Source of the DNA: Candidatus Colwellbacteria bacterium | Lineage (GTDB): Bacteria; Patescibacteriota; Minisyncoccia; UBA6257; Colwellbacteraceae | DNA: 64,000 nt | Direction: 5' to 3' | NCBI GenBank assembly: GCA_028710275.1 | Contig: JAQTUL010000001.1 | Coordinates: 921 to 64,920, forward strand | Shown: in pieces, positions 6,193 through 47,919 of the stretch | Layout of the letters: each line of letters opens with the position of its first letter | Position numbering within the stretch: the first letter of the stretch is position 1 | Notes under the pieces: model-generated | Seen by the model: the letters and a program-made list of their open reading frames with translations, nothing else | What the model was told of the DNA's origin: nothing | Database searches by the model: none | Program-made: the position numbers and the translations under genes

Positions 6193-7035
6193 TTAGGCCT
6201 CCAAAGAAATCTTGGAGATATTGAAGATTGTCTCCTTTTCCTCATCTCCACGTGTAAAAGTTCTGTTGTTGAATAATTTCATAAAACTATTTCGTAATCT
6301 CTTTACGGAGATCTTTTCATTACAAGAGGATTCTTTTATCAGAGAGATTGCTGATTTCTCTAACAGAGAGATTTTCCTATTAGCTAAAGCTTTCTCATCT
6401 GGTTCGTATTGAATAATCTTTAACAAACGACCGAGACAATCTTCGTATAGATCATAAGATTCTATATTCCACGAAGAGAGAATTTCCGAACAGATATCCA
6501 TATTTCGCGTCCGATAAAATATATCCACTGTTCTATTTATATCACTTGGCCATCCGGTAATTTTAAAAGTTCTCAGCATGGAGAGAATATGTGATGTTGA
6601 GAAATCATCTATAGTATCAGACAGATCGTTCTTATTGAAAATCTCTTTCATGAGTACATGACATACTTCGATATCGGTTTCGTATCTACCCTCTATTTTT
6701 TGTAGACGCTCTGTAGTCTGTTCTACTTCCGAACAATCTTCGAGAGTCCAGACTGAAACTCTCAAATCGGTATCTATATCGAAAGTTACATCAGTAGGAT
6801 GAGAATTGATCTCTATATTTAACCACCCCTCTATATCTTCACGTGAAGGATCTTTTCCAGGAATATTGCAATACTTCCTCAGACTCTCCGTGTCGGTTTC
6901 GTCTCCTTTGAGGGTATGTAGAAGATACTCTACAACTATTTTTCCAGCCTTAATCTGAAGGTCTGATTCTGAAACGAGAAAATGCTTTCTCTTTCCTCTA
7001 ATAGAAGAGACATCTATCGAATAGTATTGTGACAT
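6193..7035 (-). CDS. Hypothetical protein (280 aa)
   Basis: Long clean ORF. No motif recognised. Confidence 0.45.
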   Translation of the reverse strand: MSQYYSIDVSSIRGKRKHFLVSESDLQIKAGKIVVEYLLHTLKGDETDTESLRKYCNIPGKDPSREDIEGWLNIEINSHPTDVTFDIDTDLRVSVWTLEDCSEVEQTTERLQKIEGRYETDIEVCHVLMKEIFNKNDLSDTIDDFSTSHILSMLRTFKITGWPSDINRTVDIFYRTRNMDICSEILSSWNIESYDLYEDCLGRLLKIIQYEPDEKALANRKISLLEKSAISLIKESSCNEKISVKRLRNSFMKLFNNRTFTRGDEEKETIFNISKISLEA

Positions 7036-7067: not shown

Positions 7068-7076
7068 GAATCAATT

Positions 7077-7355
7077 TTAAGCATCAGTCTCGTCGTTGAT
7101 CGCCGCTCTAATTATTGCTCTACATTCAGGACATAAATTAGAGATATCATCACGCACTTCATAAATTGATTGGCACTCACCATACTTAACGATAAATGCA
7201 CTCATCATGGATCTGTATGAGTATGGACAGCTATTAAGTATCCTTAAAACCAATGGAAGTTTCTCTCCCTCATATTCCAAAAGACTATTGAATGTCTCGA
7301 GATTTTCGTCGACTTGTGCCATGACTGTATCGTTAATGATGTAAATTGTTCTCAT
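7077..7355 (-). CDS. Small hypothetical protein (92 aa; CPYS...CPEC)
   Basis: ORF only. Confidence 0.3.
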   Translation of the reverse strand: MRTIYIINDTVMAQVDENLETFNSLLEYEGEKLPLVLRILNSCPYSYRSMMSAFIVKYGECQSIYEVRDDISNLCPECRAIIRAAINDETDA

Positions 7356-8042: not shown

Positions 8043-9134
8043 CTAAATATTAAATTTATTCAAAACATTCGCAATCGTAACATTTGATACCCCGTAATCT
8101 TTTCCTAATTGAGTTTTTGTTACATCTTCATTGTTATATCGGTCATATATCTCTTGTCGTTGTTCGTCAGTTAATTTATGATGACGAGTTTTAAAATCTG
8201 GAGGAATATACGTCTCGTCAATCCATGATGTATTTCTTACAACATTATTTATACATGCGCGTGAAACACCATATTTTTCCATCATATCCTTTTCTCTTAA
8301 TTCTCCCGAGCAATAATCTTCTCTGATTCTCTTTACTATCTCCTTGTTCAGTTTAGCAACAACTCTTTTAGTTTTCGTTGTCGGTTCAGATACGGTTTTA
8401 AATTTTTCAGATTTCTCACCGTACTGTATATTAGTTCGTTTTCGATGACAATACTGACACAGCATTCTACACTTATCGATCTCCTTCTGGATTCTTTCTG
8501 TGCTATAAGTAGATCCCGCCATATTACTTATCATATAACTCTTAGTCTCGACATCTATATGATCAAATTCATAAAATGAGAGAATAGTGTTATCGAATAC
8601 ATCGGTGCAGCCTTCCATTTGACATCCACCGATTTTTACCTTTACTTCATCGACATACTTTCTATTTCTCTCCTTTCTCTTTCGTTTACTCGCAAGTCTC
8701 TTATCAGTTTCATCGATATTATTATCTCGTTCTTCTCGCTCGATATCTCTTTGTGATCTTGTATGTCTCGCGTGACATTTTCCGCATATAGTTCTCACTT
8801 TATCAAGTTCGATAAGTAGACTTTCCATCTTGAGTATAGCCGTTACATTTTTATATTTCTCTTTCGGATCGATATGATCAAAATGTATATGACTCATATC
8901 ATCGTCACCACATAGTTCACATTTATCTTTATGACTTTCAACAACATCTTTGGCTCTATTAGCTGTTGTTTTATAGCCCAGTCTCTGTACACGACAATCA
9001 AGACACATTTTAGTTTCTTGACCATTTCTCAAGTCTGCAAACTGTGATAGATTTTTTTCATCTTCACATATGTAACAGGTCTTGACTAATTCAATATAAA
9101 TCTCTTCGTCCGACTCTACTAAAGGGTTTGCCAT
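8043..9134 (-). CDS. HNH-type endonuclease-like protein with two Cys/His nuclease-like motifs and a C-terminal helix-turn-helix
   Basis: CELCGDDDMSHIHFDHIDPKEKYKN and GGCQMEGCTDVFDNTILSFYEFDHIDVE (HNH-like C..C...H.DHI). C-terminal LGKDYGVSNVTIANVLNKF is HTH-like. Confidence 0.4.
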   Translation of the reverse strand: MANPLVESDEEIYIELVKTCYICEDEKNLSQFADLRNGQETKMCLDCRVQRLGYKTTANRAKDVVESHKDKCELCGDDDMSHIHFDHIDPKEKYKNVTAILKMESLLIELDKVRTICGKCHARHTRSQRDIEREERDNNIDETDKRLASKRKRKERNRKYVDEVKVKIGGCQMEGCTDVFDNTILSFYEFDHIDVETKSYMISNMAGSTYSTERIQKEIDKCRMLCQYCHRKRTNIQYGEKSEKFKTVSEPTTKTKRVVAKLNKEIVKRIREDYCSGELREKDMMEKYGVSRACINNVVRNTSWIDETYIPPDFKTRHHKLTDEQRQEIYDRYNNEDVTKTQLGKDYGVSNVTIANVLNKFNI

Positions 9135-13211: not shown

Positions 13212-13232
13212 ATAATACTGTTTGATCAATTT

Positions 13233-14960
13233 TTAAACAAACGACGTTTTGACTTGTCCATTGTAGTTATAGTATTTCATACTTTTTCCTAGTTTATTTC
13301 GCTTCTGTTCAATTTCAGTCAGATCAGACTTCTTAGTATTATAAGCATCCTTCAAGCGATCGACATTCACAAACGGTAACACAGCGACACCTTCAAACTC
13401 TTTCTTCTTACCATCTAAATCTATCTCAAAATCCGACGGATAAAAATCTGCAATAACGGAATCGTCATCTGCGACAAGATTCTTAAGCGCTGATGGAAGA
13501 ATATCCACGCTTCCCGGAGGCATAACTGCCAATAATTGTTCGAACGATGAAAGAGGCCCTCTATTCTCAAATAAAATTTCACCGTCAAAATCATCCACAC
13601 TCTCATACATATCCATAAAAAATGGTGATTTATGAAATGGATAAAACCATTGATAATCTGGGATCCCATCAATATAGTAACGAATCACGAACAACATACC
13701 CTTAAAGTATTCGTGACACACATCATATGGTTCCGTATCGTGAAGCTTCTTCTCATAGTACAGTTTTCTATATTTATTGAAGTCGAGTTTAGGAGTGGTT
13801 CCATTTCCTGATGAAGAAGAACTACCATCCTTTGACTCCTTCAAACTCTCAGTGATACAGGAAGCCAGAACCGTATCTGGAAAATCCAAACTTCGATCTT
13901 GTGACTTCGTCAAAAGTCTCTCTTTTTCTCCTTGAGCGAGTGAATAGAAAAGTTGACCGAGAGCCTTAGTGTTCAAGGACAGTTCTCCTGTTTTCTTTGA
14001 TCGGTACACGAGATGTCCATGGTTTGTTGCGATACGCGGATACGTTTCCATCAGGACATCTAACCCATCGTTGGAAATCTCTAGTGATGGAATATGGGGG
14101 AGAAAATCATTACCGAGCATAAAACAGATTAGAATAAAATCGTAGATGAGTTGAGTATCAGTATATACATGTTCACCTGACCCCCATCGAAACTGTTTAA
14201 TAATAATTTCCCTAAACTTGTTGACATCAACAACGAAATACTTGCAGTCTATACTCTTGTAGATATTTTCTCTGATAATGTAGATATTTGGATTCGGAAG
14301 TGATAGAGTCAACATTAGGAGATCTGCATCAGGTGAGTCGATGCAGAACGACATAGCAGAATTACTTTTCATATATTGAATAATCTTGTGTTCTCCCTCT
14401 CCAGGAACCTTCTCGTTGGAGAAGATCACCTCAAGATTTGCCCACTCCGGATTCTCAGAAAGTTGTCGTTGAATATTGATATGAACATACTTGGAGAGAT
14501 TATTCATAAACTCACTTCCAGTAGTAATGCTGTTAGAATCGAAAGTCCGACTTTTATCTTTCGATTTCGCGGAGACAAATCTACGTTGTCGCTGCTGGCA
14601 CATCTTTGCCATACAAGCAACTCCGTCCGTCGCAAAGATGAATCTCTTGGATGGATTCACAATCTTTCGAAGTTCATCGGTCTTTCTACACAATTGAGAG
14701 AAGATCTGTTTCTCATGAGGAGGTTCCCTTTGTTTCGGTTTTCGGTGAAGAAAGCTCTTCTTCGGATCCGAGTTTCCGTATCCATGTGCTTTCTGACACA
14801 CGGGATGGATAATAGCATTGTTATCCAGAGCATAACACTCAACCTCCAGATTCAGATCCCTAAAAGTCTGTCCATGCTTCAATTTAATGAGACACTCCGG
14901 GTGAGTTGCGTTGATCCAGTAGAAGAGACGAGGAATACCCACGATTGCTGACCTGTACAC
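13233..14960 (-). CDS. XRN-family 5'-3' exoribonuclease (N-terminal catalytic domains only, 575 aa)
   Basis: VGIPRLFYWI matches XRN1 MGVPKFFRWL. YALDNNAIIHPVCQ matches LYLDMNGIIHNC. FIFATDGVACMAKMCQQRQRRF matches IDGVAPRAKMNQQRSRRF. Confidence 0.85.
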   Translation of the reverse strand: MYRSAIVGIPRLFYWINATHPECLIKLKHGQTFRDLNLEVECYALDNNAIIHPVCQKAHGYGNSDPKKSFLHRKPKQREPPHEKQIFSQLCRKTDELRKIVNPSKRFIFATDGVACMAKMCQQRQRRFVSAKSKDKSRTFDSNSITTGSEFMNNLSKYVHINIQRQLSENPEWANLEVIFSNEKVPGEGEHKIIQYMKSNSAMSFCIDSPDADLLMLTLSLPNPNIYIIRENIYKSIDCKYFVVDVNKFREIIIKQFRWGSGEHVYTDTQLIYDFILICFMLGNDFLPHIPSLEISNDGLDVLMETYPRIATNHGHLVYRSKKTGELSLNTKALGQLFYSLAQGEKERLLTKSQDRSLDFPDTVLASCITESLKESKDGSSSSSGNGTTPKLDFNKYRKLYYEKKLHDTEPYDVCHEYFKGMLFVIRYYIDGIPDYQWFYPFHKSPFFMDMYESVDDFDGEILFENRGPLSSFEQLLAVMPPGSVDILPSALKNLVADDDSVIADFYPSDFEIDLDGKKKEFEGVAVLPFVNVDRLKDAYNTKKSDLTEIEQKRNKLGKSMKYYNYNGQVKTSFV

Positions 14961-20268: not shown

Positions 20269-21972
20269 TTATTTCATCTTCTCATTGATATTCTCCCTGT
20301 AGATATCCAGGACTCTTGCTGACGGGTTCTTCACGTTACCACACCATTTCGGAAGCCACATGTACGGAATAGTATCTGTGTTATGGGATTTGAACTCGCT
20401 CTCAAACCACATACGAAAATAGTACGCCTCTTTTGTTTCTGGTGTATTGAACGGATATCTCTCCTTTCGAGATTCAAATTCGGAATCGGTGATAGAAATG
20501 TTTGTGTAGTCCTCGATATATTGATACCAGGACTTAGACTCGTGAGAGATAGCATCCGAGAACGCGTTCTTTGTACGGATAATAATGTCGTCTGGAAGAA
20601 GACCGGTCTGAAAGAATGCCTCTCTAACAAGAGCCTTCTCCAGTTTGTTTGAGATTCCGAGTTCTGGAGAAGGACGCGGCATTCTCAATTCCGGATCAAG
20701 AGAAAGATAGAACTCTACAAACTGCTGATGCGAGAATGGTACACGTGCCTCTATTCCGTTTCCAGCAATACATCTATCTGCGCGAAGAGAGTCGAAGAGA
20801 TAGATATCCTTTACTAATCGAACACACTCTTTGTGAAACTCGTCGGGAGATGGAGCATTGTGTAGATAGAGATACGATCCAGCCACCTCGTCCATGAACT
20901 CTCCTGAATAGATAACCTTGACATCCGTATTCTCTCGAATCCATTTGAGAAGAAGAAAGTGTGGAGTGGATGCTCTAACCGTCGTGATATCATAGCTTTC
21001 GATCGCTTTGATAATCGATGGAATAGATTTGATACCTTCAAATGGAATGAACGGAACAACAGTATGAATAGACCCGATATGATCAGCAACCTTTTGGGCG
21101 TAATAGACATCAGGGGAATCCGGCATACCGATACTAAAAGTCTTGATTCTCTTACCTTTCTGTTTCATGTAGTTTGCTGCGATAGCCGCGACCAGACTGC
21201 TATCAATTCCTCCACTAAGAAGACATGCAATCGGCCGATCAGCATCTAATCGGGACTCAATAGCCTCTGTGATAAGCTCTCGAACACGAGTTTTAATCTG
21301 TGGAAGGGAGAGAGTAACTTCTCGTGTGTATGTAGGGAGATACCATTCCTTCCAATCGATACCGGTTGAAATAACCTTATCTCTCGTCGAAACAGAGATT
21401 TTGACATAGTATGTAGGAGAGAATGTATGAACTTTTTGAGAAATAGGAATCAGTCCCTTCATCTCTGAACTGAAAGAGTACCCATGAACATCAGATGAAT
21501 AGAACAGAGGACGAACACCCATCTGATCTCTAGCAGCGTAGAGAATCGTATCGTCTGTCAAGTTGTCAATCTCAACAACAATACATGCCCATTCTCCCAT
21601 CAATAAAGAGATAGTCTTTTCAAATCCATACTTCATGTAGAGAAGAGGAACTACTTCACAATCGGAACCGGAAATCGGTGATAGGTTATGATCATCAATC
21701 AACGTCTTGTGATTATAGATTTCTCCGTTAGTAAGAGTATAAATAGTTTTATTTTGAGGAGTCTCGTAAACAAATGGTTGATCTCCCTTGGTAGAGAGAT
21801 CCATAATAGAGAGACGATGAAATCCGATCTTCATCGGAATCTTACCGTTCAGTTCCAGATATTGCGATCTATCAGGACCTCTTTCCTTGATAGAGTTAAA
21901 TGCGGAATAGTAATCGACATCCTTATGATGAAAACGTCCAAGTTTGCTAAGATAAGCCCAGATCCCGCACAT
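20269..21972 (-). CDS. Asparagine synthetase (glutamine-hydrolysing), class II amidotransferase plus PP-loop synthetase
   Basis: N-terminal MCGIWAY (Cys2 nucleophile). LLSGGIDSS PP-loop (SGGxDS). 567 aa is typical. Confidence 0.85.
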   Translation of the reverse strand: MCGIWAYLSKLGRFHHKDVDYYSAFNSIKERGPDRSQYLELNGKIPMKIGFHRLSIMDLSTKGDQPFVYETPQNKTIYTLTNGEIYNHKTLIDDHNLSPISGSDCEVVPLLYMKYGFEKTISLLMGEWACIVVEIDNLTDDTILYAARDQMGVRPLFYSSDVHGYSFSSEMKGLIPISQKVHTFSPTYYVKISVSTRDKVISTGIDWKEWYLPTYTREVTLSLPQIKTRVRELITEAIESRLDADRPIACLLSGGIDSSLVAAIAANYMKQKGKRIKTFSIGMPDSPDVYYAQKVADHIGSIHTVVPFIPFEGIKSIPSIIKAIESYDITTVRASTPHFLLLKWIRENTDVKVIYSGEFMDEVAGSYLYLHNAPSPDEFHKECVRLVKDIYLFDSLRADRCIAGNGIEARVPFSHQQFVEFYLSLDPELRMPRPSPELGISNKLEKALVREAFFQTGLLPDDIIIRTKNAFSDAISHESKSWYQYIEDYTNISITDSEFESRKERYPFNTPETKEAYYFRMWFESEFKSHNTDTIPYMWLPKWCGNVKNPSARVLDIYRENINEKMK

Positions 21973-22006: not shown

Positions 22007-22061
22007 ATACTTTTTCACTTTATTTCATTCGCCAGAACCAGGATCCTCAAATATACAAAAT

Positions 22062-23894
22062 CTAATTTGTAATTGGAATCCCGGACATCGAACTAGTCGA
22101 TGGATCGACACTCGTATCCTCCTCAACGAAAATGAATTCGGGTGGAGTAGTGTCATGAGTAACTTTCTTCCCTCTCTGTAGACCCGGAGGTCTTTCAGGT
22201 GAGGACTTTGCTAAGGAGCAGATATGAAGGGACGCATTAGTATCTCTATTCCAGTACTGGTTACAGGTTGTGCACCTTAACAAGCCATGGACTAGTGATT
22301 GATTCCCTCTTCTCCACGGACGAGGACATTCTCGCCACATAAACTTTTTATTCTCTCCTTCACACTGATAACAGGTACAAGAGGTTTTATGTTCATCTAC
22401 TAAATAGACCTTGTAACCGTTCTTTCTAAAGATGTCTCTTATTCCCTTTCCAAGAGTTGGTTCTTTCCACTTCATCTGTCTTTTCTGTTCCCAATCACCT
22501 ATCGCTATCACCGCTTCAGTTGGACCTCCGAACACGTTCTTAAAGTTACGAATCATCTTACTTTCCGATTTCTGTCTTAGAATATGGCCTCTCCACTTTA
22601 TGGATCTGAATACCTCTTTCTGGTACACAGATCTACACTCCTCTTCAACTTCTCTCTTCTTAGATACGTATTCCATGAACTCTGTGTAGTCTGATGAAGT
22701 TGAACGGTAATGAGAGAGTTCCTCCTCTATACTCTTTACTGGTTCTCTTTGTCTATCCAATTTGTGTCGGTGGGCTCTCTTACAGCACTCCCTCTTTCTC
22801 TGAACAGCCGAGTATCGGAATCTCTTCTCTCCATCGGTACAGTGAATAAGATCCTCCTTCCCAGGATCGATACCAACTATAGAGGTGTAGAGATCCCTTG
22901 TAGAGAGAAATTCAGGTCCAGTAATATAAGGCTCAACGATATCATGAGTCTTTTCATCTAAACTCCCCTTGTGAAGAAGAATCGAGACTCCCTTACCATC
23001 TGTTTTTATCATTAGGAACTCATACCCGACTCTTTCGTATCTCTTAGTTTGTGGAAGAGAGTGAATAGAGAAGTATTCAGTCCATGTATCTCTAAAGGGT
23101 ATTTTATTCTTTCCACTCTTATTGTTACCAGTAATTCTTTGTAAACACTCACCATCGAGAGTGATGTATGCAGGGATTAGAGACCTTCGTAGAGGAAAGA
23201 TATTTAATCCGAGACTAATTGCGGGTGAAAGATACATCCATGGATTACATTTAACATCGTAGCGCACTGTACCATTCTTCAATTCTCTATTACCGTAAAG
23301 AAGAGTCTTTATCCGTCCTATAAAATCTGTGTATTCATCTCCACTCTTAAGAGTATTCTCTAATACGTCTTTCTTAACAGCTTCTAGTTTTTTATTAAGA
23401 ACTTTTCTTTCGTCTCCAGAAACCAATTTCAATCCGAAGCGACGGTCGATGTATTTTCTTAATTTATCTATAAATGAGGTCTTGATAAGGTTCTCGTAAT
23501 TTACTATCATATCCTCCGCTTCGTACTTGAGGAAGTTACCAATGTGTTCGCATACGGGAATTTCTATTCTTCCTTCTGGATCGTAATGTTTGGTGTAGTA
23601 GTCTCTCACTTCTAGACACAATTCCTCATTCTTCTCAGATAGAGTACCTCTCTTTTTTGGGGTGTAGAAGAGCTTAAAACAGACATTGATAAAGTTTGTG
23701 TTTAATTCCGGAAGAACAAAGTTGTTAGTCTCCAAGTAGAGACAATACGCTTTTATGAAAGCGTATGTGTTATACACTATTCGGTTTATCTCTAGAACTT
23801 TTAATTGGATGTCATCTACCACTGAAGAATCTTTTCTAACAATAGAATTTAGTCCTATTTTAAAGGACTTGTAAGTGTATTTCTTTCCTCTCAT
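22062..23894 (-). CDS. TnpB/Fanzor-like RuvC-fold nuclease (OMEGA-family, eukaryotic/viral Fanzor2-type candidate)
   Basis: RuvC-I IVGIDPGKEDL. RuvC-II-like AVIAIGDWEQ. C-terminal zinc finger plus RuvC-III CTCYQCEGENKKF...LRCTTCNQYWNRDTNASLHI, matching the CxxC...CxxC...DRDxNAAxNI consensus. 610 aa. Confidence 0.6.
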   Translation of the reverse strand: MRGKKYTYKSFKIGLNSIVRKDSSVVDDIQLKVLEINRIVYNTYAFIKAYCLYLETNNFVLPELNTNFINVCFKLFYTPKKRGTLSEKNEELCLEVRDYYTKHYDPEGRIEIPVCEHIGNFLKYEAEDMIVNYENLIKTSFIDKLRKYIDRRFGLKLVSGDERKVLNKKLEAVKKDVLENTLKSGDEYTDFIGRIKTLLYGNRELKNGTVRYDVKCNPWMYLSPAISLGLNIFPLRRSLIPAYITLDGECLQRITGNNKSGKNKIPFRDTWTEYFSIHSLPQTKRYERVGYEFLMIKTDGKGVSILLHKGSLDEKTHDIVEPYITGPEFLSTRDLYTSIVGIDPGKEDLIHCTDGEKRFRYSAVQRKRECCKRAHRHKLDRQREPVKSIEEELSHYRSTSSDYTEFMEYVSKKREVEEECRSVYQKEVFRSIKWRGHILRQKSESKMIRNFKNVFGGPTEAVIAIGDWEQKRQMKWKEPTLGKGIRDIFRKNGYKVYLVDEHKTSCTCYQCEGENKKFMWRECPRPWRRGNQSLVHGLLRCTTCNQYWNRDTNASLHICSLAKSSPERPPGLQRGKKVTHDTTPPEFIFVEEDTSVDPSTSSMSGIPITN

Positions 23895-23916
23895 CTTAGT
23901 CTAAACTAATTATCGT

Positions 23917-24444
23917 TTAAGTCTCTTTAGCGAGAACCATGAACTTTCCTTTGTTGAAAGTGACCTTGGTGATTGTGATTGACACAGAATCTCCGACTTT
24001 CTTCGTCGACCGAGAATTTGCTCCGACAAAGATATCGACAGGTTCATCCACATAGAACCCGTTTGATGGGACATCTTTGACTGTTGTTTTCACCTTCTCT
24101 CCGAGAATCGGTACATACATCTTCACTTTCAGGATCACGGTATATCTTGTGAATCCTGTGTTATCAAACTTTATCTCTCCCTCATCATCTATCTTGAACT
24201 TTTCCACAGAGATAACCAGACCGTGTTTCGTCTGAGTTCCTGTTACAAGAGATGATGCTCTTTTCCGGATCTCACTCTCGAGATCATTCCCGAGAAATTT
24301 GGGAGGAATTCCGACATTTTTGATTCGCATAAGTTTCGTGATATAACCCATGTTTGATGCGATGAGAACAGAGGTTCTTGTAAATAAGACTTCACTATGT
24401 AAGAGAAAATCAGTTTTCATTCTCAAGAAAGATCCATTCATCAT
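23917..24444 (-). CDS. RNA polymerase subunit Rpb7/E'-like protein (tentative)
   Basis: Pattern GLVISV.KF.I.DEGEI...G...Y.V.LKVKMYVP..GE.V...V..V...GFYVD..P.DIFV resembles the Rpb7 N-domain plus S1-like layout. Length 175 aa fits. Confidence 0.35.
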   Translation of the reverse strand: MMNGSFLRMKTDFLLHSEVLFTRTSVLIASNMGYITKLMRIKNVGIPPKFLGNDLESEIRKRASSLVTGTQTKHGLVISVEKFKIDDEGEIKFDNTGFTRYTVILKVKMYVPILGEKVKTTVKDVPSNGFYVDEPVDIFVGANSRSTKKVGDSVSITITKVTFNKGKFMVLAKET

Positions 24445-24958
24445 CCTTCATCTTTTCGTATGCAGCATATGCTGCATCCAGATCGATCTCTTCGAGACGC
24501 ATTTTCTTGTATTCAGCGTACACAGCATCGATATCAGGAATCTCTTTCTCATCTTCATATTCGATCTCCTCCGGAATCTCGTCGTCATAGTAGTATTCAT
24601 ACGGATCATCTTCCACTTCCAGATTATTGAGTCTGACCAATCGGGTATTGATAACTCTCTTCTTGTGAATAGTCAACTCGTTCGCTATTGGAGACCCACA
24701 CATTCGATGTCCGTGATATGCACAACGCGGTCTCTTTTTTGAATCAAATCCATCGCGAAACGTACGACTGTAATTTCTCGCAGAATACCCCCATTTTACC
24801 CCCGCAGGCTTACACATCCCTTCTCCTTTCTTGGGGGTGAATGACCAACAATTAGGTCCATTATCACACACAATTCCTTTTCCATGGTGTGTAACACTAT
24901 TCCTGACACGTCGGATGGTATTACTAGATGAGATACCGCGAACTTCTTTGGGCTTCAT
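24410..24958 (-). CDS. Hypothetical Cys/His-containing protein with acidic C-terminus (182 aa)
   Basis: ORF only. Confidence 0.35.
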   Translation of the reverse strand: MKPKEVRGISSSNTIRRVRNSVTHHGKGIVCDNGPNCWSFTPKKGEGMCKPAGVKWGYSARNYSRTFRDGFDSKKRPRCAYHGHRMCGSPIANELTIHKKRVINTRLVRLNNLEVEDDPYEYYYDDEIPEEIEYEDEKEIPDIDAVYAEYKKMRLEEIDLDAAYAAYEKMKDDEWIFLENEN

Positions 24959-29685: not shown

Positions 29686-32600
29686 TTAAATGCTGTACGT
29701 AAAGCTGGAGTACACAAAGTCGATTGCTCCTCCGGTCGGGAAGTATCCTCCTGCTGCTCCGGGATAAAATATATTCATAATTCCACTTGTACTGATGTAC
29801 ATAGTACATGCGACTATCGACGGATTCAGTGATAGTATTTGCATGTACACAGTCCCGTAACCGTATACGGATGTACTGTAAAACTGACTCGGGAGAGCGG
29901 ATGTCGCTCCGTAGATTTGGTTTGCAACAGGTAGATTTGTTCCCCCTGTAAATCGGATCGACAGGGTGACTTTGTTATTAATCCTCATCAGATTGATCGG
30001 AACGGTAACATTTCCCACACCGGTAAATGTAAACGATGCTGAGTAATCCTCGAAGTATGTCATGGTACTTCCTCCTCCACTCAAAACGAATGACCCAGCC
30101 GTTACGCTTCCAGGAGTAACTACGTTCGTTGTTGAACCATTACCCAAAAACACCGTATTAGAAGCGGTGATGGATGCTCCATATCCAAGAGCTGTAGAGT
30201 TGGTCCATCCACCATTATTCGTATTCGAGTATGATCCGAGGCACGTATTGTAAGATCCAGTCGTGAATAAAGATCCAGCACTATATCCCACACCCACATT
30301 TTGCTGACCTGTCGTGTTATTCTGTAACGCGGTATTTCCGATCGCGATGTTTAGCTGTCCTGTTGTATTGGAGTACAAAGTATTCACTCCGACTCCCGTA
30401 TTATCATTCGCGGTTGTACTCGTAAGAGCGCTGACACCGATCGCGGTGTTATATCCACCAACACCACCAGCTATAAGAGCACTCGTTCCCACAGCAAGGT
30501 TTGAAGGTCCATTTCCAGTATTAATATCCAATCTTCCAACCATCACAACTCCTCCTGTTCCTTTGATTCGGAACAACTCATTGCTCCCGGTTGAAGATGC
30601 CGCTGCATAAAAAACATGATCGGCTGTCGTTCCATCTACTTGAAATCTTAATATTCTTGAACCGATACCGAACCCGTAAAAGTTGTGTTGTGTTTGATCG
30701 CTCGAAGTTCCACTATCAAACAGAGCAATCATCTTGTTTTGCCCGTTGTTGTTCATGTAGATGTTCTTCTGTGATGTAACTAGGCCCCCATGGGAGATCC
30801 GAAACAACTCGTTACTCGTCGTGTTTGAAGTCGCCCCATAAAACACATGATCATCCGTGAGATCAGTTTGGTATCTCAATTGACCCGCTGTTATACCAAA
30901 CCCATCAAAGTCGTGTTGTGTTTGATCACTCGAAGTTCCACCATCGTACAAAGCGATCATTTTTAGTTGGTAATTATTGTTCATGAATAGATTGTTTGTA
31001 AGTACCGTGTATCCGAGGGTTTTATTAGTCAGAGTTTGAGCTCCTGTCGTTGTAACCAATGTATTTGTAGGTACTGTAGCTCCTGATATAGTTAACGAAT
31101 TTAAAGTTGCATTGGACCCTGTGAAGCTCGTAGATGATAGATTTGTGAAACTACCATTAGTTCCAGTAAAGTTAACAGTCTGTAGATTCGTACTTGTTAT
31201 ATTCGTAATTGTAGCAGTAGACCCCGTGAGTGAAGTTATAGATGCATTAGTTCCTGTAAAGTTCGTAGTCTGAAGATTAGTACTTGTTATATTTGTAATT
31301 GTTGATGTAGACCCCGTGAGTGAAGTTATAGATGCATTAGTTCCTGTAAAGTTCGTAGTCTGAAGATTAGTACTTGTTATATTTGTAATTGTTGATGTAG
31401 ACCCCGTGAGTGAAGTTATAGATGCATTAGTTCCTGTAAAGTTCGTAGTCTGAAGATTAGTGATATTAGCGTTAATTCCAGAGAGAGAAGTTATAGATGC
31501 ATTAGTTCCTGTAAAGTTCGTAGTCTGAAGATTAGTGATATTAGCAGATGAACCGGTAAGAGAAGTTATAGATGCATTAGTTCCTGTAAAGTTAACAGTC
31601 TGAAGATTAGTACTTGTTATATTCGTAATTGTAGCAGTAGACCCAGTAAGCGAAGTTATAGACGCGTTAGTTCCTGTAAAATTTACAAATGACGCGTTAA
31701 TCGCATTAAGAGAATTAACGTATACATTTGTACCTGTAAAATTTGATACAGTAATATTCGTAAATATACTATCATTCGATGATATATTACTTGCGGTGAG
31801 AGACCCAGTAATACTAAAATTTCCTGTAACGTGACCACCATTTAGAGATATTCCAGGGAAACTTGGTGTATCAGTAGTCGAAAGACTCTGATTTAATACA
31901 ATTGGTGTTCCTCCTGGTGGTTTTAAAACCCATGATGATCTATCAGAACTTACTTGAATATATCCTGACCCAGTAATTCCTCCTTCCATCACTTGAAGAC
32001 CCGCTCCAAATCCCGAAGCGACTGCTCCACTCATATTCAATACAATATTTTTATCTGTAACAGCTAAGTTAGTTGTATTTACAGTGACGAGAGTTCCTTG
32101 AACGATAACACTATCACCGATGCCTCCAAGATTAATAGTGGTAATTCCGGATGTTGTTCCGACATTAACAAATTGTATTCCAGTACCACATCCTATATTT
32201 ATGGATTGTGTTGATGAGTTATTACCAATCGATAATGTAGCCCCAACACTATCGATTGTGTTTGTAAGAATCGATGATGATGAAATATTCGTAATAGATG
32301 CATTAGTTCCGGTAAGTGATGTTATTGTAGCATAAGTTCCTGTAAAGTTTGACACAATAAGATTATTAATATTAGCAGAAATTCCATTGAAATTTGCAGA
32401 TAACAGATTTGTACTTGTCAATGTTGTGATATTAGCAGATGAACCGGTAAGTGAAGTTATAGATGCATTAGTTCCTGTAAAGTTCGTAGTTTGAAGATTA
32501 GTGATATTAGCAGATGAACCGGTAAGTGAAGTTATAGATGCATTAGTTCCTGTAAAGTTCGTAGTTTGAAGATTAGTGATATTAGCAGATGAACCAGCAA

Positions 32601-33162
32601 GTGAAGTTATAGACGCATTAGTTCCTGTAAAGTTCGTAGTTTGAAGATTAGTGATATTAGCAGATGAACCAGAAAGTGAAGTTATAGACGCATTAGTTCC
32701 TGTAAAGTTCGTAGTTTGAAGATTAGTGATATTAGCAGATGAACCGGTAAGTGAAGTTATAGACGCATTAGTTCCTGTGAAGTTAGTAGTTTGAAGATTA
32801 GTGATATTAGCAGATGAACCGGTAAGTGAAGTTATTGACGCATTTGTGATTGTAGCAGTAGACCCAGTAAGAGATGTTATAGACATATTAGTTCCGGTAA
32901 AGTTCATTACGAAAAGATTATTAATTGATGCAGATGTTCCTGTCAAATTATTTGTTATCAATACATTTTCAAATATCGGATTTGACCCAGAAAATCCGGG
33001 ACCAGTGGGACCAGTTATCCCGATACCAGAACCTCCAGTGGGACCAGTTTCTGATGAAATCACTATAAAATTATTATTTTGAACTTGTTCGGCTGATACT
33101 AAGCCTACAATTGAAGTCAATTCGCTTCTTGCCGGCAAACTAAATCGTACCTTAAAAGCCAT
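29686..33162 (-). CDS. Giant (1158 aa) tandem-repeat surface/fibre-like protein with N-terminal collagen-like G-P-T-G segment and Thr/Ser/Asn-rich 23-aa repeats
   Basis: N-terminus GPTGGSGIGITGPTGPGFSG. Repeats TNFTGTNASITSLTGSSANITNLQT in two blocks. Likely glycosylated (N-x-T/S dense). Confidence 0.55.
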   Translation of the reverse strand: MAFKVRFSLPARSELTSIVGLVSAEQVQNNNFIVISSETGPTGGSGIGITGPTGPGFSGSNPIFENVLITNNLTGTSASINNLFVMNFTGTNMSITSLTGSTATITNASITSLTGSSANITNLQTTNFTGTNASITSLTGSSANITNLQTTNFTGTNASITSLSGSSANITNLQTTNFTGTNASITSLAGSSANITNLQTTNFTGTNASITSLTGSSANITNLQTTNFTGTNASITSLTGSSANITTLTSTNLLSANFNGISANINNLIVSNFTGTYATITSLTGTNASITNISSSSILTNTIDSVGATLSIGNNSSTQSINIGCGTGIQFVNVGTTSGITTINLGGIGDSVIVQGTLVTVNTTNLAVTDKNIVLNMSGAVASGFGAGLQVMEGGITGSGYIQVSSDRSSWVLKPPGGTPIVLNQSLSTTDTPSFPGISLNGGHVTGNFSITGSLTASNISSNDSIFTNITVSNFTGTNVYVNSLNAINASFVNFTGTNASITSLTGSTATITNITSTNLQTVNFTGTNASITSLTGSSANITNLQTTNFTGTNASITSLSGINANITNLQTTNFTGTNASITSLTGSTSTITNITSTNLQTTNFTGTNASITSLTGSTSTITNITSTNLQTTNFTGTNASITSLTGSTATITNITSTNLQTVNFTGTNGSFTNLSSTSFTGSNATLNSLTISGATVPTNTLVTTTGAQTLTNKTLGYTVLTNNLFMNNNYQLKMIALYDGGTSSDQTQHDFDGFGITAGQLRYQTDLTDDHVFYGATSNTTSNELFRISHGGLVTSQKNIYMNNNGQNKMIALFDSGTSSDQTQHNFYGFGIGSRILRFQVDGTTADHVFYAAASSTGSNELFRIKGTGGVVMVGRLDINTGNGPSNLAVGTSALIAGGVGGYNTAIGVSALTSTTANDNTGVGVNTLYSNTTGQLNIAIGNTALQNNTTGQQNVGVGYSAGSLFTTGSYNTCLGSYSNTNNGGWTNSTALGYGASITASNTVFLGNGSTTNVVTPGSVTAGSFVLSGGGSTMTYFEDYSASFTFTGVGNVTVPINLMRINNKVTLSIRFTGGTNLPVANQIYGATSALPSQFYSTSVYGYGTVYMQILSLNPSIVACTMYISTSGIMNIFYPGAAGGYFPTGGAIDFVYSSFTYSI
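31130..31700 (-). repeat. ~69-nt tandem coding repeats (block 2, approximate bounds)
   Basis: gttatagatgcattagttcctgtaaagttcgtagtctgaagattag... repeated. Confidence 0.7.
32270..32890 (-). repeat. ~69-nt tandem coding repeats (block 1, approximate bounds)
   Basis: gtgaagttatagatgcattagttcctgtaaagttcgtagtttgaagattagtgatattagcagatgaacc repeated. Confidence 0.7.
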
Positions 33163-36897: not shown

Positions 36898-37389
36898 TTA
36901 TCGAGAGGGTGACATCTGTTGATGCTCTCCGCTAAGAATTACTACTCCAGTCGTAAATATATTGAACATCGGAAGAATATATCCCAAAGTCTCAGTCATA
37001 TTGAATTGCGTCTGAAGAGTTTCAACATCAGATGTGTATCGATCGATCGAAGTACGCATTCCTCTAATGAACAACACCAAGACAATAGTGAGCGCCATGT
37101 TGATATAGATCATATGATCTAATTTTTTGTGAAGATCGGTCACCGGTCTGTGATTGACAATCTTTACCCCGAACATAAAATAGATAAAAGCAAGAAGAAG
37201 ATAAGATGCTATCTCAAGACGTTTAAAATTTGTTTTCACTCCGACAAGATCTCTCTTGGTCAGACTGGCTCTAGTTGCGGCAACTAGAGCCATAATAGAA
37301 ATATACAAGATCAATTTTACAACGATAACACAATTCCAAAAGTTCTTAGAAAACAACATCTTAAAGATGATAAAGAAATTAATTTTCAC
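36898..37389 (-). CDS. Predicted multi-pass membrane protein (163 aa)
   Basis: Four hydrophobic stretches (IIFKMLF..., ILYISIMALVAA, ASYLLLAFIYFMFGV, ALTIVLVLF, VVILSG). Confidence 0.4.
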   Translation of the reverse strand: MKINFFIIFKMLFSKNFWNCVIVVKLILYISIMALVAATRASLTKRDLVGVKTNFKRLEIASYLLLAFIYFMFGVKIVNHRPVTDLHKKLDHMIYINMALTIVLVLFIRGMRTSIDRYTSDVETLQTQFNMTETLGYILPMFNIFTTGVVILSGEHQQMSPSR

Positions 37390-45332: not shown

Positions 45333-47807
45333 TTACACGATCGATTCCTCCTCAATACGAATAGTACCAATCGTACTCTCTTCGATTTCATCTTCAACAG
45401 GATTTCGATATTCACCGGTTAGAGTCTCCTTTTTGTCGACTTTGTGTGTCGTTCCCCAGCTGAAATCGTCCATATTGAGGAATGCGTATAATGGAAGAAT
45501 GATAGTCCAAATTGGAAATGCCAGGGTATAGATAAAAAACCAGATAATATACATGAGATCTCTCTTAATGATAAAAATCAGAATCTGTACAGCTCCAACA
45601 CTACAGACGATGATAATAAATACAATTGGAACAGTAGTTCCTGTAGCAAATGCGTAGATAAGATAGATAAAATATCCGGACATAATAGGAAGTGAAATTG
45701 TAGTTAGAATATCCATCAGAACAATAAACTTCATAGAACAACAACAGATTCCACACAAGCGATCGAGTAACATAAGCTCGAGAAGATTATGGAGAGTACT
45801 GTTTATCCATCGGCGACGTTGTGATAACAAGACTCGCCAATTACTCGGTACATTAGTCTCGCATCGAGCTTCACCGACAAATTTAATCTTCCAGGTGGGG
45901 AAGTATTTGTTCAACAACGTCGTAAAGAATCGATCCTCCCCGAGATCAAAGAGATTTCTTTTATGAAGAGTGTTGATATTGTTATCTGCATAATCCTCCA
46001 AGAGTTCAGGTTTAATAAAGAGAGGCTTTCGTCTATCATCATCCGTGCGGATTCGATACATCGAGAAACATCCCGGAAGACATGTAACACTCGAGAACAT
46101 AGACTCAAACGCTTTGTTCAGCATGTGATTGATATAATATTCATACACTTGAATCGCGGTTACCCAACTCTCTGTGCGATTCGCAATAGTTGTCTCACCA
46201 CATAGAGCTATAATTCTCGGATCCTTCATTCGAAAGATCATCTGTATGATTGCATCCTCGTGAAGAAACGTATCCGCATCAACCGTCATCATGAACTTAT
46301 AACTGAATGGATCGATACCGATCGTATTCATAACACCATTATTAATGCATTTCTCAAGATCAGTCATCTCATCAACCTCTTTGAAATGAACCTTCTTAAG
46401 CCACCAATACAAAATAAGTTGTGAATCTCTCTTTCCGCGATTACCTCTACGAGGATTATTAGTTTCAGCCTCAGTCCCAGTTTTTATCACCACAACATAG
46501 GGAACTCGATGATTGTTGTTCGTGTGCCATCCGTAATAGATTTTAGCTCTGTTAAAAGCCTTTGTATCATCTCCGATACTATCGTACATAAACTCTTCAT
46601 TCGAATCATCAAGTGTTCGTCCGAAAATATTTAGAGCAATTTCTGCTGTAGATTTCTTATTTCCCTTACCTTTGATAACACCGTCTGCTACAACGAATAT
46701 AAGTTTTTTGTCATCGGGATACTCGGAATCGTAGATTGAATGAATCGTCTTTTGCATTGCATATTCCGATTCTGTGTAACACGGAACAGTTATGATGAGA
46801 TACTGAGCATCACATTTCGGATACTGTTTAATAAGTGTACACAACGATGTTAGAAACTTAATTACAAGAATACCTGCAATAGCGCATACAAAGATAAGAT
46901 ATGTGTAGTCTAGGACATGACAAACTGCATTGTATCTTGTATCGAGGGATCCAGTTTCATACCGAGAAAGATAATCCAATAGATCTTGTCGATGATACTT
47001 GGGAAATGTCTTCTCAAATAGAAGAGTAGCATCCTGCCCGATACGATTCATAATAGTAGTGTTTAGTCGTGAATCGAAGTAATATTCCATATCACGAGGA
47101 ATTGTTTCATGATCGTATTTTGATGGATAGACTCCATGCCCATATTCTACATATGAAGAGATATTGTATACTTTATTATACAGAATAAACCAGTTGGGAT
47201 TTTTTAGTTCATTAAGTTCATAGTATGTGTAAACAAGATCACCGATTGTCATTCCTTCTATCATTTGTCGAGTCTCATTTCGATAAGGATGACAGCGATT
47301 TGATGTGCAATATCGATCTGTGTCATTTACTTGTCGTTGGAGATAAACATCCAACAGGTCAGGATATAACTGAATCGTAGATGGAAGTTTGTATGAAGGA
47401 TGTGGAAGATCGAACATGTTAGTGACGTCTTGTCCGAGATATTGATTAAAGTCTGGGATTGTTCCGGGATGAACCTTGTTAAATTCCTTAACATCCAAAA
47501 CTTTACCTGATATAATCATAAGTTGCTTATTGGATTTGTAGATGTTCTCCCACGAGTAAACTGTGACATCTGGACAGAGAATCTGGGGTAGAATAGCAAC
47601 AAGAAATAGAAGAGAAAAACTAAAAGTAGCGATAAGAACAATGATAGCCACCTTTTCACGGAACGCTTGTCTGATGTCTCGATTCTTATTCAGACAACAA
47701 TCCGGGATATAGAATGTGAGAATATTACTGGCTATAAGCCATTTTTTGCGTGTAGTTGTGAGAGGATCAGTGAGAATCCTCTCACGTTCGTCGATATGTT
47801 CGGCCAT
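45333..47807 (-). CDS. Chitin synthase (GT2 family) with N-terminal cytochrome-b5-like segment
   Basis: Signatures in order: MTVDADT, CLPGCFSMYRI, LGEDRFFTTLL, LSQRRRWINST (QRRRW), DDFSWGTTHK (SWGT). Multiple TM helices. N-terminal MIISGKVLDVKEFNKVHPGT is cyt-b5-like. Confidence 0.85.
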   Translation of the reverse strand: MAEHIDERERILTDPLTTTRKKWLIASNILTFYIPDCCLNKNRDIRQAFREKVAIIVLIATFSFSLLFLVAILPQILCPDVTVYSWENIYKSNKQLMIISGKVLDVKEFNKVHPGTIPDFNQYLGQDVTNMFDLPHPSYKLPSTIQLYPDLLDVYLQRQVNDTDRYCTSNRCHPYRNETRQMIEGMTIGDLVYTYYELNELKNPNWFILYNKVYNISSYVEYGHGVYPSKYDHETIPRDMEYYFDSRLNTTIMNRIGQDATLLFEKTFPKYHRQDLLDYLSRYETGSLDTRYNAVCHVLDYTYLIFVCAIAGILVIKFLTSLCTLIKQYPKCDAQYLIITVPCYTESEYAMQKTIHSIYDSEYPDDKKLIFVVADGVIKGKGNKKSTAEIALNIFGRTLDDSNEEFMYDSIGDDTKAFNRAKIYYGWHTNNNHRVPYVVVIKTGTEAETNNPRRGNRGKRDSQLILYWWLKKVHFKEVDEMTDLEKCINNGVMNTIGIDPFSYKFMMTVDADTFLHEDAIIQMIFRMKDPRIIALCGETTIANRTESWVTAIQVYEYYINHMLNKAFESMFSSVTCLPGCFSMYRIRTDDDRRKPLFIKPELLEDYADNNINTLHKRNLFDLGEDRFFTTLLNKYFPTWKIKFVGEARCETNVPSNWRVLLSQRRRWINSTLHNLLELMLLDRLCGICCCSMKFIVLMDILTTISLPIMSGYFIYLIYAFATGTTVPIVFIIIVCSVGAVQILIFIIKRDLMYIIWFFIYTLAFPIWTIILPLYAFLNMDDFSWGTTHKVDKKETLTGEYRNPVEDEIEESTIGTIRIEEESIV

Positions 47808-47919
47808 AACTGAAGAGAGAAGTACGATAACAGACTATATTTTGGTCTATTTCAATTTTAGGGTTTTGTCTATTATTATGTAGACAAAACTCGATATCAT
47901 AAAAGATTCAGTTTAAAGA

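Follow-up and report, generated by a model that had tools for sequence, protein, structure and literature searches.

Fanzors correspond, in eukaryotes and viruses, to TnpB and Cas12, and are under development as compact genome editors. Members of the Fanzor1 (Fz1) class are known from giant viruses (Saito 2023; Bao & Jurka 2013), including the PGv-1-type elements, in which Fz1 is borne by a Mariner transposon (Bao & Jurka 2013), and occur in Spodoptera frugiperda ascovirus 1a (SfAV) and related insect viruses (Bao & Jurka 2013; Yoon et al. 2023). Solo elements that encode a ∼606-amino acid (aa) Fz1, with two copies in a large DNA virus, are accompanied by a three-stem right-end RNA (reRNA) (Yoon 2023). 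In SfAV this is a ∼120-nt three-stem scaffold with a stem-loop at the guide, transcribed to ∼20 nt past the right end (Yoon 2023), the same extension as in TnpB and Fanzor reRNAs (Saito 2023; Yoon 2023). Here we describe an Fz1 locus in a 64-kb window (the whole 64,000-nt stretch of DNA analyzed), which belongs to a contig filed under a candidate phyla radiation (CPR) bacterium. Very probably, it consists of an intact Fz1 gene in a compact ∼1.9-kb, transposase-free selfish insertion between an Rpb7-like gene and the asparagine synthetase gene AsnS of a giant-virus genome, with an inferred omega RNA guide mechanism.

The Fanzor open reading frame (ORF; 22062..23894, minus strand) is intact and encodes a protein of 610 aa. 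Pfam PF07282 matches this protein with 31.3 bits, above the gathering cut-off of 26.3, whereas NCBIfam guided_TnpB reaches 38.3 bits against a cut-off of 100, with a match limited to the C-terminal 70 residues; the profile libraries detect only the C-terminal zinc-ribbon/TNB part. A phmmer search of the PDB sequences matched PpFz1 (7e-30), SpuFz1 (2e-29, residues 231-557) and GtFz1 (2e-10), with no Fz2 chains among the matches. An AlphaFold2 model built from an alignment of 34 relatives has a pLDDT of 84.6 and a pTM of 0.78, with residues 576-610 disordered (pLDDT ∼30). In a Foldseek comparison with the PDB, the model matches SpuFz1 over its full length with a template modeling (TM) score of 0.76-0.78, followed by PpFz1 (0.71) and GtFz1 (0.58), against 0.26 for the mimivirus Fanzor2 (Fz2) ApmFz2 (9b0l) and 0.26-0.31 for TnpB. 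Because the phmmer matches are to Fz1 chains and the fold scores are 0.76-0.78 versus 0.26, the predicted protein is classified as a Fanzor1 and not a Fanzor2. The gene is intact and would encode an RNA-guided nuclease.

An earlier reading of the window, made from the sequence only, had proposed an intact TnpB/Fanzor-type RuvC nuclease, too big and too elaborated at its N-terminus for a bacterial TnpB, and had called for a profile search and a structure prediction. Both parts of the proposal hold: the ORF is uninterrupted, the search passes the PF07282 cut-off while falling short for guided_TnpB, and the prediction gives a full-length Fz1 fold with catalytic motifs that align with those of SpuFz1 and PpFz1 through HMMER. 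Its choice of Fanzor2 is not retained, as sequence and fold point to Fanzor1 instead. A bacterial TnpB of the IS200/IS605 type was rejected on the guided_TnpB score and on a Gly at the canonical RuvC-II Glu position, and an element of the Fanzor2/IS607 type on the size of 610 aa, the Fz1 fold and the absence of a resolvase or recombinase domain in the neighboring genes.

In Fanzors, Gly or Pro takes the place of the canonical RuvC-II Glu, and downstream of it, at a distance of some tens of residues, lies a conserved alternative Glu (Jiang et al. 2023). As read from the sequence, this rearranged triad is complete in the 610-aa protein, for which DNA cleavage is predicted. The RuvC-I Asp is D343 (22868-22866, minus strand, as are all coordinates of the element), in the motif GIDPGK. 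The canonical RuvC-II Glu position is occupied by G466 (22499-22497), in IAIGDW, and the relocated Glu is E501 (22394-22392), in VDEHKTS, 35 residues after G466. The RuvC-III Asp is D551 (22244-22242), in WNRDTNASLHI, and a zinc ribbon of four Cys (C508, C511, C541 and C544) lies between RuvC-II and RuvC-III. The motifs of D343, E501 and D551 match the corresponding SpuFz1 and PpFz1 motifs in HMMER alignments, and across the 34-sequence alignment there is no variation at D343, G466, D467, E501, D551, C508, C511 or C541. The three RuvC blocks listed in the earlier reading are present as far as GIDPG, RDTNASLHI and the zinc ribbon are concerned, but the Glu of its "block II" is not canonical, that position being Gly466 and the Glu having moved to E501.

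Relative to related viruses, the Fanzor segment is an insertion, placed exactly between the stop codon of the Rpb7-like gene and the upstream region of AsnS. It spans 23916..∼22032 (∼1,885 nt) and consists of a 22-nt leader ACGATAATTAGTTTAGACTAAG (23895..23916), the Fanzor1 ORF and 28-30 nt after the stop codon, with the right boundary fixed to ±2 nt (22034-22031). These limits follow from a homology gap, an empty site and an independent end of conservation. In the Fanzor-free locus L171 (gene order NUDIX - ORF - Rpb7-like - 935 nt - AsnS), nucleotide homology with the window breaks off at the Rpb7-like stop codon (23917) and restarts at ∼22028; a second locus, L170 (Rpb7-like - 1.6 kb - AsnS - XRN), likewise has no Fanzor between the Rpb7-like gene and AsnS. 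The closest relative of the Rpb7-like gene (82% aa identity) is in L172, which presents a clean empty site, ...GTTAA|AT|CGAATGAAATA, the window counterpart of which is ...CTTAA|[insertion]...CCTGGTTCT(GG)|CGAATGAAATA. In the window, CGAATGAAATA (22031-22021) starts 2 nt past ...CCTGGTTCT and agrees with L172 at 11/11 nt of the junction. Finally, L002 carries a 63% identical Fanzor in another gene neighborhood, and its conservation with the window stops at the same ...CCTGGTTCT (22034), beyond which the sequences are unrelated.

The leader is kept in L003, another locus of the same Fanzor clade, and is absent from L170, L171 and L172. With the preceding TTAA it gives ACTTAAA, a motif found family-wide 25-45 nt 5' of the ATG. 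A left boundary within the Rpb7-like C-terminus, taken earlier from the alignment of the window with L003, was abandoned: homologs show that this C-terminus (...KVTFNKGKFMVLAKE[T/C/V]) is native, and L172 puts the boundary after the stop codon.

The last ∼120-215 nt of the insertion, which run over the disordered C-terminal tail of the protein, form a structured region that ends 0-4 nt before the right boundary. The putative omega RNA (reRNA) scaffold (22034..22154), delimited by folding and covariation, comprises three predicted stem-loops: stem 1 (22154-22107), stem 2 (22102-22086) and the guide-adjacent stem 3 (22084-22038), which is closed by CCGGGAU/AUCCUGG and includes the stop codon. 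It finishes with a UUCU tail (22037-22034) at the right boundary, and the NRD codon (22250) is the farthest upstream point at which the conserved module may start. The minimum free energy (MFE) of the window module is -39.7 kcal/mol (z = -2.68), and when the window, L002, L004 and L008 are folded separately, the same three-stem architecture is obtained, with z from -2.6 to -4.6. In an RNAalifold consensus of five loci, 6/18 pairs have compensatory changes and 88.9% of cells are paired, versus at most 45.5% with slid partners; in this clade the observed covariation score is equaled by 1/500 shuffles. Rfam gives no match for the window 3' module.

Several observations indicate that the tail is constrained as RNA rather than as protein. 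It is disordered in the model, and downstream of a 2-nt deletion that frameshifts the tail of the L003 Fanzor, nucleotide identity to the window is still high (86-95% in 90-nt bins over the last part of the ORF). In the comparison of the window with L002, substitutions at the three codon positions number 145/116/274 in the core and 28/25/34 in the tail, where the third-position bias is gone (the corresponding tail counts for L003, 4/2/11, are uninformative). In addition, the last 53 residues are identical in the two known copies of the gene from this genome, against ∼7% divergence overall. By analogy with characterized systems, we infer that the three-stem 3' structure is the expected omega RNA scaffold. 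The candidate guide segment, again by analogy, would be GGCGAAUGAAAUAAAGUGAA (22033-22014), the native flank directly 3' of the right end. The earlier reading had placed any guide RNA over the 3' end of the ORF and the 89-nt spacer downstream; the most plausible position of the predicted scaffold is across that ORF end and the first part of the spacer.

A large sister family in giant viruses offers a second view of this region. Its Fanzors share 32-36% identity with the window protein over more than 90% of the protein length and form a separate clade; the protein search gave 361 matches, and IMG/VR giant-virus metagenome-assembled genomes (MAGs) gave 521. From IMG/VR and JGI metagenomes, 160 loci (L009-L168) were fetched, of which 63 carry a co-oriented DDE_3/helix-turn-helix transposase (IS630-Tc1/mariner). 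The terminal inverted repeats (TIRs) are perfect, at least 24 bp long and of the T[T/A]TACACCCTTGAAGATTTAAAAT type, the left one lying 390-600 nt or 1.9-2.8 kb 5' of the Fanzor ATG. A long form with the transposase and a short form without it occur, along with small accessory ORFs. Judged from these sequence features, the sister family rides Tc1/mariner-type transposons with PGv-1-type architecture. The distance from its NRD codon to the right end is near-constant at 206-220 nt (217 nt in the window), while the stop codon falls anywhere from -60 to +131 nt relative to the end. Its 3' RNA module has four helices, with 98% of cells paired versus at most 50% when slid, and 113 compensatory cells versus 32±5 in shuffles (0/500). 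The last 10 nt of the module are the TIR terminus, paired with internal sequence.

For the window element, a mechanism can be proposed by analogy with TnpB and Fanzor. Transcription reading through the right end would produce an omega RNA/reRNA with the three-stem scaffold and a ∼16-20-nt guide from the flank (GGCGAAUGAAAUAAAG...). The Fz1-RNA complex would then recognize and cut the unoccupied site, in which ...TTAA, on the side of the target-adjacent motif (TAM), is followed by CGAATGAAAT... When such a cut is mended by recombination with an occupied genome, the element would be regained or would spread, in line with proposals made for TnpB and Fanzor.

The distribution of related copies fits such a mobile life style. 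The protein is identical to MDD4930552.1 in NCBI nr, on a 152,625-bp contig, and the same contig carries a second Fanzor1 copy, MDD4930636.1 (P0122; 516 aa), ∼84 protein accessions away, with 93% protein identity over residues 96-610. The earlier reading had recommended looking for further copies elsewhere in the genome, and this is one. Five other members of the window clade, 88-47% identical, all have different neighbors. The core is under purifying selection, as 144/227 mismatches between the window and L003 fall at the third codon position. Inside the 64-kb window, no further copies were found by tblastn or blastn, and the right-end 13-mer, with up to two mismatches allowed, occurs in the element itself and in one chance match. 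Exact right-end and 3'-tail patterns were not found in IMG/VR or JGI metagenomes, and protein-based scans of IMG/VR, metagenomes and GTDB genomes returned no close relatives.

A number of points weigh against this account of the locus. No TIR was found at the window junctions, where ungapped matches are at chance level (14/22), and no target-site duplication (TSD) was found at the junctions set by the L172 empty site, the left TTAA having no duplicate on the right. No transposase was found in the 64-kb window or in any window-clade locus. The contig with the empty site, L172 from SRR23617173, stops 17 nt beyond the junction. The second copy, MDD4930636.1, is without the 95 N-terminal residues and may be decaying. 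The covariation support is modest, with 5 usable clade sequences and a structure derived from those same sequences, and a covariance model of the sister-family 3' module (R1) gave no significant match at 22034-22250 or in the window clade. The omega RNA, guide and TAM are predictions from sequence. With gaps allowed, the best candidate for a left TIR (p∼0.007) falls within the Rpb7-like coding sequence, 268 nt upstream; as it conflicts with the boundaries from L003, L171 and L172, it was rejected as a chance match. The distant clade members L007 and L008 have weak left TIRs 73-112 nt 5' of the ATG (p∼0.02-0.03).

The absence of transposase and TIRs near the Fanzor ORF had been noted in the earlier reading and is confirmed. 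It fits a non-autonomous or stranded mobile element equally well as a domesticated gene. Without TIR, TSD and transposase, the window copy is thus either a non-autonomous element that moves in trans or through homing, or a stranded one. In view of the weak left TIRs of L007 and L008, it may be a 5'-truncated or stranded derivative.

Sequences around several copies bear on how these elements travel. Directly 5' of the Fanzors in L002 (L002:9567-9706; GGAAGTTCATG..GGTTCTGCT..AAAGAAATC) and L003 (L003:200-285; ACTAAAGAGACTTAA) lies a decayed Rpb7-like 3' coding end, in loci that have no Rpb7-like gene. These remnants suggest that flank sequence travelled along with the element in both cases. One heptamer, TGGTTCT, is shared by the native Rpb7-like 3' end (23942-23936; L170 and L172 have it too) and the final 7 nt of the insertion (22040-22034; L002 has it too); either microhomology or coincidence may account for this. 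A perfect 32-nt palindrome, TTAACTAAACTGGTTTAAACCAGTTTAGTTAA, lies upstream of the Fanzor in L004 (L004:60-130). It resembles a head-to-head pair of element termini (…CTGG / CCAG…), and adjacent or nested copies may be its origin.

A further reading, which we think improbable, is that this small Fz1 clade spreads by RNA-guided homing without transposase or TIRs, the Fz1-omega RNA complex cutting unoccupied sites and recombinational repair copying the element together with bits of flank. Homing of this kind would explain the clean junctions without TIR or TSD, the Rpb7-like remnants in L002 and L003, and the repeated TGGTTCT.

It is also rather unlikely that the locus is what remains of a once-mobile Fz1 element, which lost its left TIR on or after insertion, can no longer move, and has a still open ORF nearing decay and a leftover RNA structure. 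This would agree with the lack of a left TIR in the window, compared with the weak left TIRs of L007 and L008, with a leader of just 22 nt, with the loss of 95 N-terminal residues from the second copy and with the frameshift in L003. The catalytic and zinc residues are nevertheless all intact, the AlphaFold2 model is confident, the core is under purifying selection as shown by the third-position mismatches against L003, and a nuclease with its RNA could still home without a TIR.

It is less probable again, and distinctly doubtful, that the Fanzor has been domesticated (exapted) as a fixed viral gene, for example in defense against competitors or in genome processing, and is no longer mobile. 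The earlier reading had favored a domesticated copy, and the window copy, without surrounding TIR, TSD or transposase, with an intact ORF that keeps every catalytic residue and with tight packing among co-oriented genes, would suit this view. It is contradicted by the L172 empty site and the Fanzor-free syntenic loci in related viruses, by the second, diverging and N-terminally shorter copy in the same genome, and by the unrelated contexts of the closest relatives. The L003 frameshift also speaks against it, as do the conserved right-end RNA module, a hallmark of a mobile-element life style, and the precedent of solo Fz1 elements known as non-autonomous transposons (Yoon 2023; Bao & Jurka 2013).

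Finally, a Fanzor2 or IS607-type TnpB element, or the TnpB of a CPR bacterium, is almost certainly the wrong identification, already refuted by the fold comparison: the placement of the protein by NCBI in a "Candidatus Colwellbacteria" MAG, the standing of Fz2/IS607 as the classic giant-virus Fanzors (Jiang et al. 2023) and the lack of TIR and TSD, as in IS607-family elements, speak for it, but the Fz1 match is full length (TM 0.26 for ApmFz2 and 0.26-0.31 for TnpB), guided_TnpB gives 38 bits against a cut-off of 100, a domain scan of the neighbors found no serine recombinase nearby, the window genes are of eukaryote or giant-virus type with relatives in giant-virus MAGs, and "bacterial" Fz1 matches elsewhere are mis-assigned giant-virus contigs (Yoon et al.).

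The preferred account, a selfish Fz1 insertion in a giant-virus genome, places the element in a closely packed series of co-oriented genes, with spacers of 22 nt upstream and 89 nt downstream of the Fanzor ORF. Position, size and flanking genes of the ORF are as the earlier reading described them. The downstream AsnS (20269-21972) has strong Pfam matches (Asn_synthase, E 3e-56), and the upstream Rpb7-like ORF (23917-24444, minus strand) matches SHS2_Rpb7-N below threshold (E 1.4e-4; 22.4 bits, cut-off 24.8). Homologs of the Rpb7-like protein mostly begin at window residue M32 (MGYITK...), and the real start is probably at 24351, so that the overlap with the upstream ORF (24410-24958, minus strand) disappears. 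By eye, the L171 interval between the Rpb7-like gene and AsnS (L171:2476-3410) seems to keep remnants of two ORFs with broken frames, one repeat-containing (MORN-like) and the other of RING-finger type. An AsnS-based synteny scan of IMG/VR found one locus, with 44% identity and no neighbors in common. Genes appear to turn over particularly often in this slot between the Rpb7-like gene and AsnS.

The 89-nt spacer also contains a 9-bp hairpin, AAAGAGATA/TATCTCTTT (22006-21998 and 21988-21980, minus strand), which the MFE fold lengthens to 11 bp (22007-21979; z = -2.75). This hairpin, pointed out in the earlier reading as a possible part of the guide RNA region, does exist, but it does not belong to the element. 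It lies beyond the right boundary of the insertion, in sequence alignable with L171, and L171, which is Fanzor-free, shows a hairpin of its own (ATAACAAGATAT/ATATCTTGTTAT) in the corresponding place shortly before the AsnS ATG, so the hairpin is read as a native feature of the AsnS upstream region. As a speculation, it may incidentally set the 3' end of read-through transcripts.

The CPR label of the contig is evidently a binning error, the contig being that of a giant virus. The window gene content is giant-virus-like, including a fungal-type chitin synthase, an XRN exonuclease, an intein-bearing SNF2/RING helicase, a kinesin-motor-like protein, a NUDIX protein and many ORFans, and it is the chitin synthase, XRN, kinesin-like and intein-bearing SNF2 genes, together with relatives of the Fanzor in giant-virus MAGs, that mark the contig as mis-binned. 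Wrong assignment of giant-virus contigs likewise accounts for "bacterial" Fz1 matches in the literature (Yoon et al. 2023). The Mimiviridae-type early promoter AAAATTGA is not enriched in the window as a lineage marker (4 matches versus 9.6 expected). Its copies (7071-7078, 13226-13233, 37311-37318 and 47852-47859, minus strand) are 4/4 on the gene strand, and 3/4 precede an ATG by 36-50 nt (the ORFs that begin at 7035, 13187 and 47807).

The chitin synthase (45333-47807, minus strand) is of fungal type (Chitin_synth_2, E 2e-173) and fused to a cytochrome-b5-like domain. The nearest structural relatives of the Fanzor are likewise fungal, namely chytrid and mucoralean Fz1, and this pair of resemblances may point to the lineage of the host. 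The window contains one more selfish element, the intein (Hint and LAGLIDADG homing-endonuclease domains) that splits the SNF2/RING-finger helicase ORF (48697-51576, minus strand). Other ORFs on the minus strand encode a protein with an HNH-endonuclease motif (8043-9134), a pentapeptide-repeat protein of 1,158 aa (29686-33162) and a protein of 1,258 aa containing part of a kinesin motor domain (59973-63749).

The locus leaves Fanzor biology as known unchanged. It adds a natural case with clear limits from a poorly sampled giant-virus lineage, for which occupied sites, empty sites and another genomic copy are available, and it supplies a predicted scaffold for the guide RNA and, in …TTAA, a candidate for the TAM side. 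Omega RNA modeling could usefully draw on the very large sister family, in which a strongly covarying 3' module is fused to TIRs of Mariner type.

Compared with the structurally characterized Fz1 proteins, SpuFz1 of Spizellomyces punctatus (PDB 8gkh, 9ceu-9cez) and PpFz1 of Parasitella parasitica (9cf0-9cf3), the window protein shares the fold over the full length (TM 0.76-0.78 and 0.71), a similar size with a ∼600-aa core and, in HMMER alignments, the RuvC-I DPG Asp, the RuvC-II Gly-for-Glu replacement, the Glu of (V/L)DE(H/Y/F)(K/R)TS, the zinc ribbon and the NRD motif. It differs in having only 19-24% identity to them, in its giant-virus rather than fungal host and in being known from sequence; the omega RNAs have no detectable sequence similarity. 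The mimivirus Fanzor2 (ApmFz2/ApmFNuc, IS607) is also a giant-virus RuvC nuclease with a rearranged RuvC-II Glu and a 3' guide RNA, predicted in the case of the window. It belongs to the other Fanzor class (TM 0.26), and the window element is without IS607 TnpA and encodes a protein ∼130 aa larger, with expanded REC domains.

The PGv-1-type elements and the sister family have in common with the window a homologous Fz1, a distance of ∼210-220 nt from NRD to the right end, a 3' RNA module at that end and ACTTAAA upstream of the ATG. The TIRs of at least 24 bp, transposase and accessory ORFs of the sister family are all absent from the window element, and the RNA covariance model does not match. 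The SfAV elements, like the window element, consist of a ∼606-610-aa Fz1 alone, in a large DNA virus with at least two copies per genome, and their reRNA, like the one predicted here, has three stems with a stem-loop beside the guide, and extends over both the ORF's 3' end and the right end of the element. In contrast, SfAV-type elements have 13-bp TIRs and a TTAN TSD, of which the window copy has neither, though its left flank ends in TTAA, and the SfAV reRNA was seen by RNA-seq, whereas that of the window is predicted. The sole unusual trait of the window element is this absence of TIR and TSD combined with carried-over flank sequence. Giant-virus Fz1, solo Fz1 elements and Mariner-borne Fz1 are all known already, and the window locus is a further example from a sparsely sampled clade.

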